Below are positions 40,901-48,004 of a DNA stretch of 64,000 nt, piece after piece; the first letter of the stretch is position 1, and each line of letters opens with the position of its first letter. The notes below the pieces were generated by a model. It had not been told where the DNA came from and made no database searches. It worked only from the letters and a program-made list of their open reading frames with translations. Source of the stretch: Rubripirellula sp. GTDB lineage: Bacteria; Planctomycetota; Planctomycetia; Pirellulales; Pirellulaceae. The position numbers were made by a program, and so were the translations under genes. Location: contig OZ244207.1 in assembly GCA_965216875.1 (NCBI GenBank), positions 4,960,001-5,024,000 on the forward strand, given 5' to 3'.

Positions 40901-42766
40901 TCACTTGATCTCAACCGTCTGGCGAAGCTGAGCTGGGGGCAAACAAAAGGTGTCACGACACACTTCGTAGTCGACCAAGACACGCAACCTCGTTGTCGCG
41001 GCAACGTCATCAACCCGGACTTTCCGACTGAATTGCGCGATCGCTTGGTAGATCTTTTCTTGTGGATTTTGCCTCGAAGGCTGGCCCTTTGAACGGGTCC
41101 ACTTTCCCAGCGGTGCGACACCGCCTGGCAAGTCGAACTTCAGTCGCACTGGAACATGGGCGCCGCCTTCAGGAACTTCCGAGTAAAGGTGCCATCCCGG
41201 TTTGATGGAGATCGTCACCTTCACGTCGTAGACGCCCGGCTGATCCTCAACCGGATCGGCGACCGTCACCATGCTTAACTGGTCCGTCGAAACCTTGTCG
41301 TCAGTCTCGAAGGTGTCCACCTTTTCTTCAGGCTTGACGTCTTTCTCAGGCTTTGCGTCCGGTGATTCTGCCGCTGAGCCCGCGGACGAAACCGCGTGCT
41401 TGGGCGCATCTGGATTCCGTCGGAAGTACCAAACTTGACTGATACGAGATTCCTTTTCGATGAACTCTTTGTTCCGCTCGCTCAGCTTTTCGAACCTACC
41501 TTGAAATGGCTTCATCGCCTCTTCGAAGGCCTCTTGATCGTAGTCCCCGGCCTCAAACTTCTTGGCAAACTCTTTTTGTACCGCTTGGCTTTCCGCCGTC
41601 AGGGCTTCAATCGCCTGCCGCACTTCTTCCTGGGCGACTTTTTCTTCGTCGGTCATCTCGCGCAGGTGATAGACGTCTGAGTAGTCGCCAACGATCAAGT
41701 CGAGCCAACCATCGTTGTCATAGTCAACAACGCAGATCTGGCTTCGAACGCCCAGTGCCGCTTCGTCGTCCTTGCCAAGGTATTGCATCTTGAACTTTGA
41801 TTCCGAACCAGCTGCGATCAGTGGTCGGTACGCTTCGAACTTTGGCTCACCTGTTGAACCTTGCGTCACGTTGCGATACCAGCCAACTGCGCCGTCACCC
41901 GAACCGACGACCAAGTCCCATTTGCCGTCGTTGTCCCAATCAGCAGCAACGGGCGCAGCGTGCATGTTGACGTGCAAGGGTTCCTCACCAACGTTCACTT
42001 GGATCGCGTCGACCGAGTACTTCGGTGTTTCGCGCGTGCCGATGTTCGTGCGCAAAAACAAGTCGCCCGAGAACGAACCTATCAAAACGTCGAGATCGCC
42101 GTCGCCATCCCAATCGACGGTCGTCGGCCAGCTTCCAAAGGTCGCGACTCGCAACGTGATTGAATCGGTATCACCAGAGTTCTGCTTCTCTTCGTCAAGC
42201 TCATTCCACTTGGCAAGCTCGACCGGATGGTGGACCAGTTCGATTCCTGACTCGTCACGAATCTTTTCGACTTCGGCATACTTGCCATCACCCAAACCGC
42301 GAAACAGATAGATGTCGCCGGGGTCGTACGAACCGCTGATCATGTCGAGCGTGCCGTCGTTGTCGTAGTCCACAAACTGTGGACTTGACGCGATGCATCA
42401 GTAAACCGGTGTCTTGGCATCGACACCACCTGCTTGAAGTTTGCCTTTGGACGTGTACTCAGGCTTTTCGTCGTTGGCCGTGTTTTCGAAGAACCAAAAG
42501 AAGCCTGGAAAATCCCCCACCAACAGATCGCGGTCACCATCACCATCGACGTCCGCCACGCAGGGTCCAGCGTGAGCAATGTTTGACAATTGACCGATGT
42601 CGATCGGCTTGCCGTCCGCTTGGATGCGAACTCCTTTGTCTAGATCGCCGACCACTCGATCTTTCGTCAAGTCCTGCTCGCCGGCGATCGCCGTTGGAAG
42701 CGCCAGCAGCCCCATCAACAGCGTGCATGAACCACGCCCCACCTTCCTCAATAACCGACAACACAT
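40901..42766 (-). CDS. Exported FG-GAP/VCBS repeat protein with C-terminal DsbD-N-like domain; in-frame TGA (42398-42400) in a U-C motif, candidate selenoprotein of 621 aa
   Basis: ORFs 42398-42766 and 40901-42373 are in one frame: KTPVY-TGA-CIASSPQFVDYDNDG; DxDGDGDxDL repeats on both sides; YEVCRDTFCLPP. Confidence 0.8.
42367..42385 (-). promoter_or_regulatory. Putative SECIS hairpin
   Basis: AGUCCACA-GUU-UGUGGACU, perfect 8-bp stem 12 nt after UGA. Confidence 0.75.
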
Positions 42767-43806: not shown

Positions 43807-46200
43807 TTATCTTACTTCAAGGTAGGGATTGATGGTTTGCGCCTTTTCGACGCCCTTGGACGTGACCTGATACCGCCCCACTTGGATGGAAACATAGCGC
43901 AGGCTCGCACACTTCGCGAGCTCGAACAAACCTTCGTCCGTGACGTTGGGCGATTCGATAATGAGGGTCTCAAGTTTTGGGGATTGGCCGAGGTGCTTGA
44001 GCCCTTCGTCACTCACCGCCACTTTGCCCAGGTAGAGTGAGGTCAGCGAGGGAATCCTGGACAAATGCAAACACGCTTGATCACCGAGTGATGGCGTATT
44101 GCGTATTTTGAGTTCTTTGAGTTCGGGCAGTTTCTGCAGGTGGATGAGGTATCGCCCCTTGATCGCTTCGGAGATCAACTCCACTTCTTTCAGCTCGGGG
44201 CAATGGGCCAGGTAAGGCAACCCCGAGCCGGTCATCAATTCCGATTGAAAATTGAGTCGCTGTAAATTCGGCAAGGCTTCAAACGCTTGCATGCCGTGAT
44301 CCGTAATCGTTGACTTTCGTGTCAGCAGGTACTCGAGTTGTGGGAACTGATTCAGTTTTTGAAATTGTCGATCGTCAAGTGACGCTGAGACAGATTCGAA
44401 TGCCGTGACATTCGGCAGCGGCTCATCAAGTTTCCAGATCGGAGCGTGGGCGACCTTGCCACGAACGGAGATGCTTTTCAACTTGGTGAGTGCTTGCAGA
44501 GGCGTCAGGTCCAAGGTGCGCTGAATCGCTTCAATCTGAACGGTTTCCAGTTGAGGCATCGACAGCATGTCGGTGATCGACCCTTGCCCCGAAAAGGGCG
44601 TTTGCCAGCGAGTGTCATTGTCAAACAGGCTGCCATGACCGTTGACGCGCATCGAAACGCCGGGATAGCGAGCCTGCAGTTGGGCAAGACCACCGCGAGT
44701 CACGGGGCAGGGCGTGATGACCAAACGCCTGAAACCCGCCGGCAACTTGAGGCCAACAAGCTCATCATCAGACAATTTCGGATCATCGACAATGAGCTCT
44801 TTCAATCCGCTCAACTCTGCAATGCGACCAAGCTGATGCGGTGCGATACGTTCGAGCCACAAGCCTTCGATTCCGCGGAGCGCGGCGACTTCGTCCAAAT
44901 CCCACGACACCTTTCCTGACGATTCAAGCTCAGGCATCACCGACGGTGGACCAGCGGTGTGCAGGTCGTACATTCGACCACGCGTGCCCAACGGTGTGAG
45001 ATGAAGGTCCGCGATCTGACCTGGCCAATGAAGCACGGGTCTGAGTCGATTGGAAAAAAACGGTCGAAGGAAAAGAAGGGGCACGACGGACAAGTTCCGA
45101 AGCTTGGCAGCTTCGATCGCCTGGGCTTGAGTTGGCGACAACTCGGTGCGAATCGTCAACTCCAAGTCAGGACGTGCCTTCGCCAAACGCTCAATCGCCT
45201 CTTTGCTAAACCGACCCGATAGCTCAACGCGTCTTAGCGGCTGCTTTGCATTGCCCACAACTTCGAGCGAGCGATCCGTCAAATTACCACTTAGCGTGAT
45301 CGATTCGATCGAGTTCATTTGCGTCAGCGACTGCGTCGCTTGATCCGAAATTCCCGAACCAATCAGATTGACCTCTTGTAACTTTCGACATCGGGCAATG
45401 CTTTCAGCGTCCTCATCACTCGCGCCAACAAATCGCGAAGCAAACAACTCGAGGTTTGGTAGAGTCGGCAGCACATCCACGAGACGCGAGGGCAAGTCGT
45501 CGGCATAGGTCAACTTTGAAACCGGACATCCATCCAGACGATGAAACTGGTCGTAGTACACGCCGGACCGAGACAAGTCGAGCTGTTGGAGGTTGGGGAG
45601 TTTCGAAACGTCACCTAGCCCCGGACCGAGCACCCCCGAACCGAGCGTCAATTCACGCAGCGAAGGTATCTTCAACAGGTGTGCAAGTCCGGCATCCGAA
45701 ACACCTGTCTCATGAATATCCAATGCCACCAGTTGTTTGCAGTTGGCAAGCGGAACGAGCCCATCGTCGGTAAGGTGCGTTCGCCAAAGTGATAAGCGTT
45801 CAAGTTGTTCCAAACGAGCGATGTACTTCATCCCCTCGTCGCCAAGATGGGAACGATTGAAGTAGGCGCGTTTCAAGTTTGACAGGTGAGTGATCGGCGC
45901 AATCGAATCGTCATTGAGCATTGGCGATCCGGCGCGAATCTGAACGGCCAAGACGAATCGCTCGGGATCGAGCTTGGCAATCCAACTTGGTCGGACGCCG
46001 ATCGTTTGAATCTCGGCACCCTTTTCGGCCAGCTGTAGACTCGCCTCATGCTGGCGATAGTAGAAGACGTAGAAGTGAAGCCAGACCGCCAGCAGGATGG
46101 CTAGAAAGGTAACCATCACCAGCAGCGTACGTAGCCGCCAGCGCAGCCCCCACTTTTTCGAGTTTGCCTTGATGTCGTGCCCCGGCACCTGCTCACTCAC
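43807..46200 (-). CDS. Membrane-anchored leucine-rich repeat protein
   Basis: WRLRTLLVMV N-terminal TM; many LxxLxL..T.VSD.GL repeats. Confidence 0.85.
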   Translation of the reverse strand: MSEQVPGHDIKANSKKWGLRWRLRTLLVMVTFLAILLAVWLHFYVFYYRQHEASLQLAEKGAEIQTIGVRPSWIAKLDPERFVLAVQIRAGSPMLNDDSIAPITHLSNLKRAYFNRSHLGDEGMKYIARLEQLERLSLWRTHLTDDGLVPLANCKQLVALDIHETGVSDAGLAHLLKIPSLRELTLGSGVLGPGLGDVSKLPNLQQLDLSRSGVYYDQFHRLDGCPVSKLTYADDLPSRLVDVLPTLPNLELFASRFVGASDEDAESIARCRKLQEVNLIGSGISDQATQSLTQMNSIESITLSGNLTDRSLEVVGNAKQPLRRVELSGRFSKEAIERLAKARPDLELTIRTELSPTQAQAIEAAKLRNLSVVPLLFLRPFFSNRLRPVLHWPGQIADLHLTPLGTRGRMYDLHTAGPPSVMPELESSGKVSWDLDEVAALRGIEGLWLERIAPHQLGRIAELSGLKELIVDDPKLSDDELVGLKLPAGFRRLVITPCPVTRGGLAQLQARYPGVSMRVNGHGSLFDNDTRWQTPFSGQGSITDMLSMPQLETVQIEAIQRTLDLTPLQALTKLKSISVRGKVAHAPIWKLDEPLPNVTAFESVSASLDDRQFQKLNQFPQLEYLLTRKSTITDHGMQAFEALPNLQRLNFQSELMTGSGLPYLAHCPELKEVELISEAIKGRYLIHLQKLPELKELKIRNTPSLGDQACLHLSRIPSLTSLYLGKVAVSDEGLKHLGQSPKLETLIIESPNVTDEGLFELAKCASLRYVSIQVGRYQVTSKGVEKAQTINPYLEVR

Positions 46201-46583
46201 GTTGTCTGTTCATCCCTCGATGCGAGATCGCGCATCAATCACACCACCTTTATACTCCGGCGAGAACGACGATGCGCTGTCACTACCTTCGGCCAGACAG
46301 CGGGGCCTCGCCCATGTCCCCAGCCGGTCAACGTCCCGACGGGGTCACCCGTCCCTGACTTTGAAATGCCGTCCGATGCCGCAAATCAGTGGCGGAAGGA
46401 CTGCCAAACAGGCGATTTGTCATTGAAGTGACGGCTGTCCCGTTCGGCCGCCGACCGCGGGTGAAGTGTAAGCTCGTCCACGTGATGAGGCTATTTCACC
46501 TACGCAATGGGTGGTCGCCGGGCTAACCTGTCACCAGTCAACGTTAGTTATCCTTCCTCTTAACACGCGAGGAGTTTCATTCA

Positions 46584-46946
46584 ATGAAACGATCGTCTTT
46601 ACTGCTGCCCATCGCGATGCTGGTCGCGATCGGCTGTTCGGCCGAACCTGAGGCAACGGTTGATTCCAATGCCACAGAGTCGACCCAAACCGTACAAACT
46701 CCAGCTGGAACCGATTCCGAGGCTGTCACCTTTGTCAGTCTCAAAGTTCCCAACATGGTCTGAGGAGGCTGTGCCGCTTCGGTCCGAAGCGATCTGTCCA
46801 AAATCGCAGGTGTCAGCGATATCAAAACCGACATCCCCAACAAGACCTGTTCGTTCAAGATCTCTGATCCTAACGTTGACTACGAGGCGGAACTGAAGAA
46901 GTACGCCGAAACGAACACGCACTTGGCTGAATACACCATTCAGTAG
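46584..46946 (+). CDS. Lipoprotein with HMA domain, MxUxxC motif (TGA at 46761-46763), candidate selenoprotein of 120 aa
   Basis: GAGGAG RBS; lipobox VAIGC; LKVPNMV-TGA-GGCAASVRSDLSKIAGVSDIKTD; TAG stop followed by a terminator; absent from the ORF track. Confidence 0.85.
46775..46791 (+). promoter_or_regulatory. Putative SECIS hairpin
   Basis: CGCUUCG-GUC-CGAAGCG, perfect 7-bp stem 11 nt after UGA. Confidence 0.75.
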
Positions 46947-46970
46947 TCCATCCAACCGAATTGCGAAGTG

Positions 46971-47006
46971 AAACGGGCCCGTGAAACTCTCACGGGCCCG
47001 TTTTTT
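46971..47006 (+). terminator. Rho-independent terminator
   Basis: aaacgggcccgtga-aactc-tcacgggcccgtttttt. Confidence 0.88.
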
Positions 47007-47136
47007 ATTGATCGAAAAGAAAACGGAGATTTCTTTCCCCGCGGTGTAATCCTGGAGGCCGTTGTGCCCTTTGTCTAATGTCAACACGAGACAAACGAAC
47101 AAAACACAAGGCAAACCAACTCAAGGAGCCAGGACA

Positions 47137-47559
47137 ATGAAAACCTCATGGAAGTCAATCGTAGCAGCAGGAACGGTCGTCGCCGCTTTGGGACTTTGCG
47201 TTCCGCAAACGGCAAGTGCACAGGGCACCGTGTACGTTTCGACCCCAACCGTCGTCAACGCAACTGTGGGCTACACCGTCGAACAACGCGGATTGCTCGG
47301 ACGACGAACGGTTGTCCGCCCCGTGGTCGCCCCAGTGGTGACAAACACCGTGGTCGCCCGACCTGTCATCACAACGCCTGTGGTGACAACCCCCGTGGTC
47401 CCAGCACCTGTCGTTCAAACCCGCGTGGTCACGCCAGTCGTCACTCCACCAGCACCTGTCACGGTGGCTCGCCCTGTTTACACCGCAGCCCCCACAACCG
47501 TCGTGCAACCCGTCGCTCCGGTGACCTACTACACGCCCCCTGTGCTGACGGCATGGTGA
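47137..47559 (+). CDS. Exported Pro/Val/Thr-rich low-complexity protein
   Basis: AAGGAG RBS region; signal peptide ASA|Q; paralog at 52783. Confidence 0.7.
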   Translation: MKTSWKSIVAAGTVVAALGLCVPQTASAQGTVYVSTPTVVNATVGYTVEQRGLLGRRTVVRPVVAPVVTNTVVARPVITTPVVTTPVVPAPVVQTRVVTPVVTPPAPVTVARPVYTAAPTTVVQPVAPVTYYTPPVLTAW

Positions 47560-47650: not shown

Positions 47651-48004
47651 TTAGCGAACGATGGTGCGACCAAACTTGGTGATCACGACTTCGACGCTGT
47701 GGTCGCAGCCTGGGAACTTGTAGGTCAGGACCTTGCGACCGAAGAAACCAGATCGGCATCCGCAGTACACAGGAGGAACTTCTGCACAGCAGGCTGGCAC
47801 GCATGCCGACACTTCATAGGTGCAGCATGGGTTGCATGGATCTGCAACGCACCATGAAACCTTCACCGGTGGTGGAGGGCATGGGGTGCAGCAAACAGGT
47901 GCTGGCTTGCAGCATGGATCAAGGCAACCAGCGTCGGCCGGCGCTGCCATTGCAACCAAAGCGGCTACCATGCACCCGGCGATCAAACCACGTAAACGAA
48001 ACAT
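47651..48004 (-). CDS. Small exported Cys/Pro-rich protein
   Basis: Signal peptide ADA|G; CC/CP-rich mature region. Confidence 0.7.
   Translation of the reverse strand: MFRLRGLIAGCMVAALVAMAAPADAGCLDPCCKPAPVCCTPCPPPPVKVSWCVADPCNPCCTYEVSACVPACCAEVPPVYCGCRSGFFGRKVLTYKFPGCDHSVEVVITKFGRTIVR

Follow-up and report, generated by a model that had tools for sequence, protein, structure and literature searches.

A predicted selenocysteine-containing HMA-domain lipoprotein, cut short by gene callers, in Rubripirellula and related Pirellulaceae

Selenocysteine (Sec, U) has been predicted before at the metal-binding motif of heavy metal-associated (HMA) domains. NCBIfam already contains selenoprotein HMA models, NF041115 (UxxU_metal_bind) and NF045683 (MerT/CopZ fusion). 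The Global Ocean Sampling (GOS) survey counts two sequences of a "Mercuric transport protein MerP", along with a "Cation-transporting ATPase" with UxxC, among its selenoproteins (PMC2398784), and Table 1 of a 2026 review names NF041115, the ATPase and a "putative mercuric transport protein" (PMC13188914); a 2022 review holds only 2Fe-2S "CopZ family" entries. Here we analyze a stretch of 64,000 nucleotides from Rubripirellula sp. (Planctomycetota; Pirellulaceae; contig OZ244207.1, positions 4,960,001 to 5,024,000), referred to below as the window. At 46584-46946 on its + strand, an initial annotation made from the letters alone had proposed a lipoprotein with Sec in its HMA motif. Comparison with related genomes leaves us highly confident that this locus encodes a real gene, one that would be decoded with selenocysteine.

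The novelty claimed for Sec as a soft-metal ligand was overstated, since NF041115, NF045683, the GOS "MerP", the UxxC ATPase and the 2026 review all predict Sec at HMA metal motifs. The family described here belongs to that predicted kind, yet it is absent from the catalogues and models we checked. The text of the 2026 review contains no mention of PF00403, lipoprotein, Planctomycet or Pirellul (PMC13188914); Table S9 of PMC4807772, the one listing of planctomycete selenoproteins that we found, has no HMA or metal-binding entry, with one "hypothetical" entry unresolved and supplement files 13 and 14 outside the search; and full-text literature searches pairing selenocysteine with HMA domain, and selenoprotein with heavy metal-associated or Rhodopirellula, returned nothing relevant.

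Like the NF041115 proteins, the window protein is a small, computationally predicted HMA-type protein with Sec in its metal motif, but it carries one Sec in a UxxC motif rather than two in UxxU, and it is set apart further by its lipoprotein signal peptide, by a linker predicted to be disordered and by a third cysteine that is conserved. It scores 21.2 bits against this model's cut-off of 95, and 27 of 32 aligned orthologues match the model only weakly (best E 2.2e-7). With MerP (TIGR02052; PDB 1osd, 1afi) it shares a single, periplasmic HMA domain (in our case by prediction) and a GMTCxxC-type loop; MerP, however, uses Cys, is soluble and is encoded in a mer operon beside merT, whereas the window protein has Sec, a predicted lipid anchor and a solitary gene. 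Its TIGR02052 score is 27.7 bits, against 92.55 needed, and no merT/merA operon accompanies it. The HMA domains of CopZ and copper ATPases have the same fold and M-x-C-x-x-C loop, and the ATPase selenoprotein has the same UxxC, but these domains are cytoplasmic and that of the ATPase is fused to a pump, while the window protein stands alone and is predicted to be an exported lipoprotein. Against the CopZ model NF033795 it reaches 27.0 bits for a cut-off of 91, and, unlike CopZ, it begins with a signal peptide and lipobox. The window protein and the 32 orthologues all score far below the cut-off of every NCBIfam model.

Under translation table 11 the locus yields only a 59-residue open reading frame (ORF; 46584-46763), and the initial annotation was right that the ORF listing had missed the gene. 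With TGA read as U, the frame continues to a TAG at 46944-46946, giving a complete coding sequence of 120 codons (46584-46946, + strand) supported by translation, homologues and alignment. The in-frame UGA (46761-46763, +) specifies residue 60 and lies within LKVPNMV-TGA-GGCAASVR, exactly where the M-x-C-x-x-C motif has its first Cys (M58-V-U60-G-G-C63), a position at which Cys-form homologues have TGC or TGT; Cys63, the second ligand position of the U-G-G-C motif (46770-46772, +), is invariant in all 32 orthologues. A Shine-Dalgarno-like GAGGAG (46569-46574, +) stands 9 nt ahead of the ATG at 46584, with GGAG-type motifs at the same place in many orthologues, and an intrinsic terminator (46970-47008, +), comprising a 15-pair stem at 46970-47004 and a run of T, begins 24 nt past the stop. 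The ribosome binding site, lipobox, linker, motif with TGA at its first Cys, TAG stop and terminator of the initial annotation were thus all found where it had placed them; of its "Thr/Glu" linker, Thr and Glu were borne out, and Ser is abundant as well.

In a public collection of 5.8 billion proteins, the locus is represented only by the 59-residue stub, together with 50-61-residue stubs of relatives that are named, where named at all, "hypothetical protein"; a search of this collection at near length found no match to the full-length form. Very probably, then, what gene finders have cut to a stub is a complete, membrane-anchored Sec protein of 120 residues. A near-identical strain (X5), from a run labelled algae metagenome, has six listed differences over 801 nt, and these leave the ORF untouched. 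Separately, a 382-nt contig of run X6 matches 46569-46950 with zero differences, from 15 nt ahead of the ATG to 4 nt beyond the stop; as the run is only guessed to be RNA, we do not count it as evidence of expression.

The in-frame TGA is a persistent feature of this family. Among 61 relatives, the eight best matches (43-99% identity) each have one in-frame TGA. We surveyed a sample of 301 genomes of the same family, counting matches at E<=1e-8, and found the gene in 82 of them; 80 of the 89 matches contain one TGA and nine contain none. The TGA form occurs in 74 genomes, about a quarter of the sample. TGA occupies the Sec codon in 32/32 aligned orthologues and in 60 of the 63 named loci of another collection, which overlaps the 301-genome set. 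Most of the named loci with TGA carry Pirellulaceae labels (Rubripirellula, Rhodopirellula, Stieleria marina K23_9), and a few bear the label Gemmatales, Frigoriglobus or Blastopirellula; the three with a Cys codon, labelled Mariniblastus, Methylobacterium and Oscillatoriales, are without the hairpin sequence described below. Cys codons were found at the same column in L031, L077-L082, L145, L147 and L148. We conclude that the family is common in marine Pirellulaceae.

The initial annotation had named four observations that would refute its proposal, and none of the four was made. TGA and Cys alternate at codon 60, close orthologues carry TGA with a hairpin rather than TGC or TGT, and conservation continues past the TGA: at codons 71-89 amino acids are conserved and third positions are free, which indicates that the segment beyond the UGA is translated in frame. 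The hallmark of a selenoprotein gene, an in-frame UGA that is kept in orthologues and aligned to Cys in homologues, is thus present. So is the Sec machinery that the proposal called for, in a genome where TGA is otherwise an ordinary stop, terminating 601 of 1674 open frames of at least 500 codons. A selD-selA-selB cluster lies at C1:325282-330621 (selA 507.5 bits, selB 343.5 bits), and ARAGORN places a tRNA-Sec with anticodon tca at C1:7784438-7784530; selA, selB, selC and selD all exceed curated cut-offs.

Across the family sample, SelA (E<=1e-60) is matched in 205 of 301 genomes, including 71 of the 74 with the TGA form. The other three TGA-form genomes, G096, G322 and G142, are 73%, 84% and 86% complete, the latter two being scored negative by their absence among the SelA positives listed. 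A SelB test (E<=1e-50) of five of the eight Cys-only genomes found none in G295, G205, G257 (99% complete) and G006 (94%). We observed, in addition, that the five members of one genus (g121: G122, G205, G257, G295, G323) all have the Cys form and match the SelA model weakly (E 1e-75 to 1e-88), the three tested being without SelB; the "SelA" of this genus may be a paralogue retained when Sec decoding was lost. A further side observation concerns selD of the Rubripirellula genome, whose match falls inside a 749-residue open frame (C1:325282-326898, -). The upstream portion of this frame has a second match, to the NAD-binding region in the model for MerA (pyridine nucleotide-disulfide oxidoreductase), an arrangement suggestive of a SelD fusion.

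Directly 3' of the UGA, the window contains a candidate selenocysteine insertion sequence (SECIS), CGCUUCG-GUC-CGAAGCG (46775-46791, +). The perfect 7-bp stem, which the initial annotation had reported, starts 11 nt past the UGA and closes a loop that reads as a GUC triloop, or as GGUCC if the closing G-C pair opens. The minimal Escherichia coli fdhF element likewise has an 11-nt spacer; the fdhF SECIS has a bulged U and the window hairpin does not. On its own the 17-nt hairpin folds at -8.2 kcal/mol (z -3.21), and one of 200 shuffles was as stable. The bacterial SECIS model (bSECISearch), as quoted in the 2026 review, specifies a loop of 3-9 nt on a stem of 4-16 bp, a G within the first two nucleotides of the loop with G or U next to it on the 3' side, a UGA-to-loop distance of 16-37 nt and a minimum free energy of <= -7.5 kcal/mol (PMC13188914). 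The window hairpin falls within all four limits, with its 3-nt GUC loop, 7-bp stem, distance of 18 nt and energy of -8.2 kcal/mol, and resembles the consensus in being a stem-loop immediately downstream of the UGA with a small apical loop that starts with G-U. An Rfam scan of 46000-47500 at E<=10 returned chance matches and no SECIS family.

We aligned 54 nt from the UGA across the 32 orthologues and found the hairpin kept in every one. The seven pairs form in 98.7% of cells, compared with 27-44% in controls that displace the 3' arm by 1-3 columns. Two-sided changes occur at two pairs, in three cells: in the window, U-A replaces C-G through GCC->GCU (silent) and GGC->AGC (Gly->Ser), giving GCU/AGC, and in L026 and L072, A-U replaces G-C, giving ACC/GGU. 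The U-A variant recurs in L083, outside this alignment. None of 500 shuffles matched the observed percentage paired, cell count or covariation score, and six of 500 matched the pair count. The frozen synonymous sites are a stronger SECIS signal than this covariation. Codon entropy is 0-0.63 bits at codons 64-70, compared with 1.1-2.2 bits at neighbouring four- and six-fold degenerate codons; Ser66 is TCG in 32/32 orthologues (35% genome usage) and Arg68 is CGA in 31/32 (23% genome usage). Where the hairpin varies in the named loci, 6 bp of stem remain, with a 5-nt loop containing G-U, and in the Cys-codon homologues L031 and L077-L082 the hairpin was looked for and is absent.

The predicted product is an HMA-domain lipoprotein. 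As the initial annotation had anticipated, the read-through sequence matches Pfam PF00403 above threshold (36.3 bits over a gathering threshold of 24.8; E 7.5e-9; residues 53-99), and a six-frame scan of the genome recovers the same domain at 28.6 bits. The domain spans residues 49-120 (46728-46943, +) in beta-alpha-beta-beta-alpha-beta order, as delimited by Pfam, AlphaFold2, Foldseek and PDB profile matches. An AlphaFold2 model built from the 32 orthologues has a predicted local distance difference test (pLDDT) value of 94-97 per 10-residue block over residues 50-120, with strands at 49-54, 77-83 and 88-93, helices at 61-71 and 100-110, and strand-state residues at 118-119. Foldseek retrieves the HMA domains of MerP, ATP7A and CopZ (TM-score to target 0.7-0.8), led by oxidised MerP (1osd; target-normalised TM-score 0.77), and a profile search of PDB sequences retrieves ATP7B, CopA, MerP, CCS and CopZ. 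The threshold score, the ferredoxin-like fold and the M-x-[U/C]-x-x-C loop between strand 1 and helix 1 together place the protein among HMA domains, and M58, U60, C63, S66, V67 and R68 are invariant in 32/32 orthologues. A third conserved cysteine, Cys89 (46848-46850, +), lies at the start of strand beta-3, outside the classical HMA motif; 31 of the 32 orthologues have it, as do Cys-form homologues. Because strand 3 is antiparallel to strand 1 and starts where strand 1 ends, C89 and the metal loop would, from the fold topology, sit together at one end of the sheet.

Ahead of this domain, residues 1-18 (46584-46637, +) form a predicted type II signal peptide, MKRSSLLLPIAMLVAIG|C, laid out as a basic n-region, hydrophobic h-region and lipobox (MKR-SSLLLPIAMLVAIG-C). 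The lipobox reads AIG and then C, with Cys18 (46635-46637) the predicted lipidated residue, and G17 and C18 are invariant in 32/32 orthologues. The genome encodes LspA (85.2 bits) and Lgt (171.6 bits), so that all the usual features of a bacterial lipoprotein are in place, and Cys18 lipidation and a location at the cell membrane are predicted on this basis. Residues 19-48 (46638-46727, +) form a variable linker rich in Thr, Ser, Pro and Glu that is predicted to be disordered, with pLDDT <50 for residues 22-45, and its length and sequence differ among orthologues.

A mechanism can be proposed from the computed features of the locus, namely the gene model, conserved UGA, SECIS, Sec machinery, HMA fold and lipobox. 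SelB carrying Sec-tRNA(Sec) would bind the hairpin beyond UGA60, so that selenocysteine is inserted in place of termination. The protein would then be exported by its type II signal peptide and lipidated at Cys18, and the flexible linker of ~30 residues would tether it to the membrane with the HMA domain facing the periplasm. There, a thiophilic metal ion may be held between the U60 selenolate and the C63 thiolate, with C89 as a possible third ligand, and the protein would buffer this metal or pass it on. We favor Cu(I), with Hg(II), Ag(I) and Cd(II) as alternatives, since the genome has no mer system and periplasmic copper handling is general. As there is no partner gene or operon, we offer a chaperone or sensor role as a proposal. 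Taken as a whole, a Sec-decoded periplasmic HMA lipoprotein that binds a soft metal, most likely Cu(I), is in our judgment the probable account, held with appreciable reserve.

Several observations weigh against this account or against parts of it. The longer sequence around the hairpin folds unremarkably (z -1.33 for 76 nt, 0.02 for 40 nt). Covariation is real but thin, being confined to two of seven pairs and three cells; three of the seven pairs never vary, and the number of further pair types was matched by 500/500 shuffles. The hairpin codons also encode a conserved A-A-S-V-R-G, so nucleotide conservation there partly reflects constraint on the protein, and the alignment comprises the 32 orthologues with loci returned, out of 80 TGA-bearing matches. 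One genome (G148) has SelA and SelB yet the Cys form, indicating that Sec is not obligatory. The near-equal scores of the MerP and CopZ models (27.7 and 27.0 bits) indicate no particular metal. A Pfam scan of the gene's neighbours in the window found none related to metals, and within 1.5 kb on each side of the 32 loci no flanking ORF family is common to more than four; without conserved neighbours, operon context gives no functional lead.

The main rival holds that the protein is a redox enzyme on an HMA scaffold, with U60-x-x-C63 cycling through a selenylsulfide and C89 as the resolving residue, working either as an oxidoreductase of the periplasm or in the reduction of a metal or metalloid. 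Its appeal lies in precedent: thiol oxidoreductases make up most of the UxxC selenoproteins in published tables, and a redox role is what reviews expect of UxxC and CxxU motifs (PMC13188914). The other selenoproteins found in this genome, a peroxiredoxin (Prx)-like protein and a rhodanese, are likewise redox or sulfur-transfer enzymes, and C89, kept in all but one of the aligned orthologues, is surplus to classical two-coordinate HMA binding. The fold and motif, however, are those of HMA metal binders and not of the thioredoxin fold, the M-x-[U/C]-x-x-C loop is invariant down to Met58, as in metal-binding HMA domains, and no redox partner gene is conserved near the 32 loci. We therefore regard a redox function as unlikely, if still to be reckoned with.

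If the metal is mercury, the protein could instead be a MerP equivalent that captures periplasmic Hg(II) for a mercury importer and reduction by MerA. Selenolates bind Hg(II) very tightly. MerP is the best NCBIfam match, found weakly in 32/32 orthologues, it is periplasmic and the best structural match (1osd), and the ocean metagenome survey lists a "MerP" selenoprotein (PMC2398784). The score of 27.7 bits nevertheless falls far under the 92.55 cut-off, the gene is solitary and outside any mer operon, and the partners are missing: MerT (PF02411) was not found in the 99%-complete genome, and no MerA exceeds its cut-off there (best 406.6 bits against 454.45). This makes dedicated mercury uptake an improbable role. 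Far less credible is that the TGA is a genuine stop, leaving a 59-residue lipopeptide or decaying pseudogene with an untranslated HMA-like part. Table 11 does yield a 59-residue ORF, public calls end there and TGA is a common stop, but over the 60 downstream codons the 32 orthologues conserve the protein while synonymous sites vary, the TGA falls exactly where an HMA domain that is otherwise intact has its ligand Cys, a conserved SECIS comes next, the TGA form tracks SelA and SelB, and the six listed differences in the near-identical strain all lie outside the ORF. By these comparisons, termination at the TGA appears already contradicted.

Within the soft-metal account, a bolder extension can be formulated. 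U60, C63 and the family-specific C89 might form a three-ligand Se/S/S site, to our knowledge unprecedented in classical HMA proteins, in a selenium-dependent, oxidation-resistant periplasmic device with which marine Pirellulaceae would capture or reduce Cu(I), or else Hg(II) or As(III), at the trace levels of the ocean. We consider this speculative and rather doubtful; if true, the supply of selenium would bear directly on how a whole bacterial family acquires or detoxifies trace metals. Nearly all selenoproteins studied employ Sec for redox catalysis, and Sec at a metal-ligand position of a predicted exported protein makes this family a natural system in which to test selenolate-metal coordination. 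A link from selenium to copper or mercury cycling in marine and algae-associated Planctomycetota is a further possibility. Since gene callers truncate the family at the UGA, it is invisible in current annotations. The cultured, completely sequenced strain Stieleria marina K23_9 has an orthologue (NZ_CP036526.1:6395607-6395996), which makes the family experimentally tractable. What we describe is a solid, widespread and testable family with an unexplained C89, and not a new principle.

Relatives extend the range of Sec usage at this motif. Three loci, L034, L043 and L051 (in G035, G003 and G007), have two TGAs four codons apart, U-x-x-x-U, and L036, L037 and L040 have U-x-x-x-C forms, which indicates that loop spacing varies within the wider family. 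A 454-residue lipoprotein (L084; G168:C2:97700-99600) has four tandem HMA domains, every one of them with NMTUGGC, a separate in-frame TGA and a separate GGUCU-loop hairpin, so the single chain is predicted to contain four selenocysteines. At L083 (G279:C62:3300-4800), Sec-form and Cys-form HMA lipoprotein genes stand in tandem, the Sec copy bearing the U-A hairpin variant. A tree of 50 domains requires five changes of Sec/Cys label, with the starred branches forcing at least four; because it is built on 72 columns, is poorly resolved and has a midpoint root for drawing only, we claim no direction of change. The repeated interchange of the two forms, with Cys forms accompanying loss of selB, provides a clean example of Sec/Cys dynamics.

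The gene's neighbours in the window encode a divergent leucine-rich repeat protein, a secreted Pro/Val-repeat protein, a Cys-rich 117-residue ORF and an extracytoplasmic function (ECF) sigma factor. The 117-residue ORF (47651-48004, -), 700 bp downstream of the HMA gene on the opposite strand, has a signal peptide and ~19 cysteines in CC, CxxC and PCC runs; it belongs to no Pfam family and is not a conserved neighbour. Elsewhere, the genome has only two other HMA matches, one of them at the start of an 890-residue open frame that we take to be a putative P-type ATPase.

As an internal control, comparable hairpins with G-U loops were found in other genes of the genome whose in-frame TGA stands at a classical site. 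A Prx-like protein with WUPHC matches AhpC-TSA at 70.3 bits and has a hairpin loop of GGUCG, and a rhodanese with CYUQSGGR scores 123.5 bits and has a loop of GGUC; both are further selenoprotein genes of known kinds. They lie at C1:1772173 (+) and C1:1259663 (-), respectively, and their apical loops, both of the GGUC type, are 13-14 nt plus the stem past the UGA. A de novo scan of the genome for TGA followed by a hairpin in open frames gave 1379 raw candidates and 114 after a loop filter, nearly all of them out-of-frame noise; only the HMA, Prx-like and rhodanese genes were retained.

The window also contains what would be, from its sequence, a second candidate selenoprotein gene, at 40901-42766 (-), where two same-frame ORFs are split by a TGA at 42400-42398. 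The read-through product has a signal peptide, the motif '...TPVYUCIASS...', FG-GAP repeats and a DsbD_N domain, and 12 nt past the TGA begins a hairpin of 8 bp with a GUU loop, one more of the control hairpins with G-U loops. This candidate resembles the "ASPIC UnbV/FG-GAP" selenoprotein candidates given for planctomycetes in Table S9 of PMC4807772.

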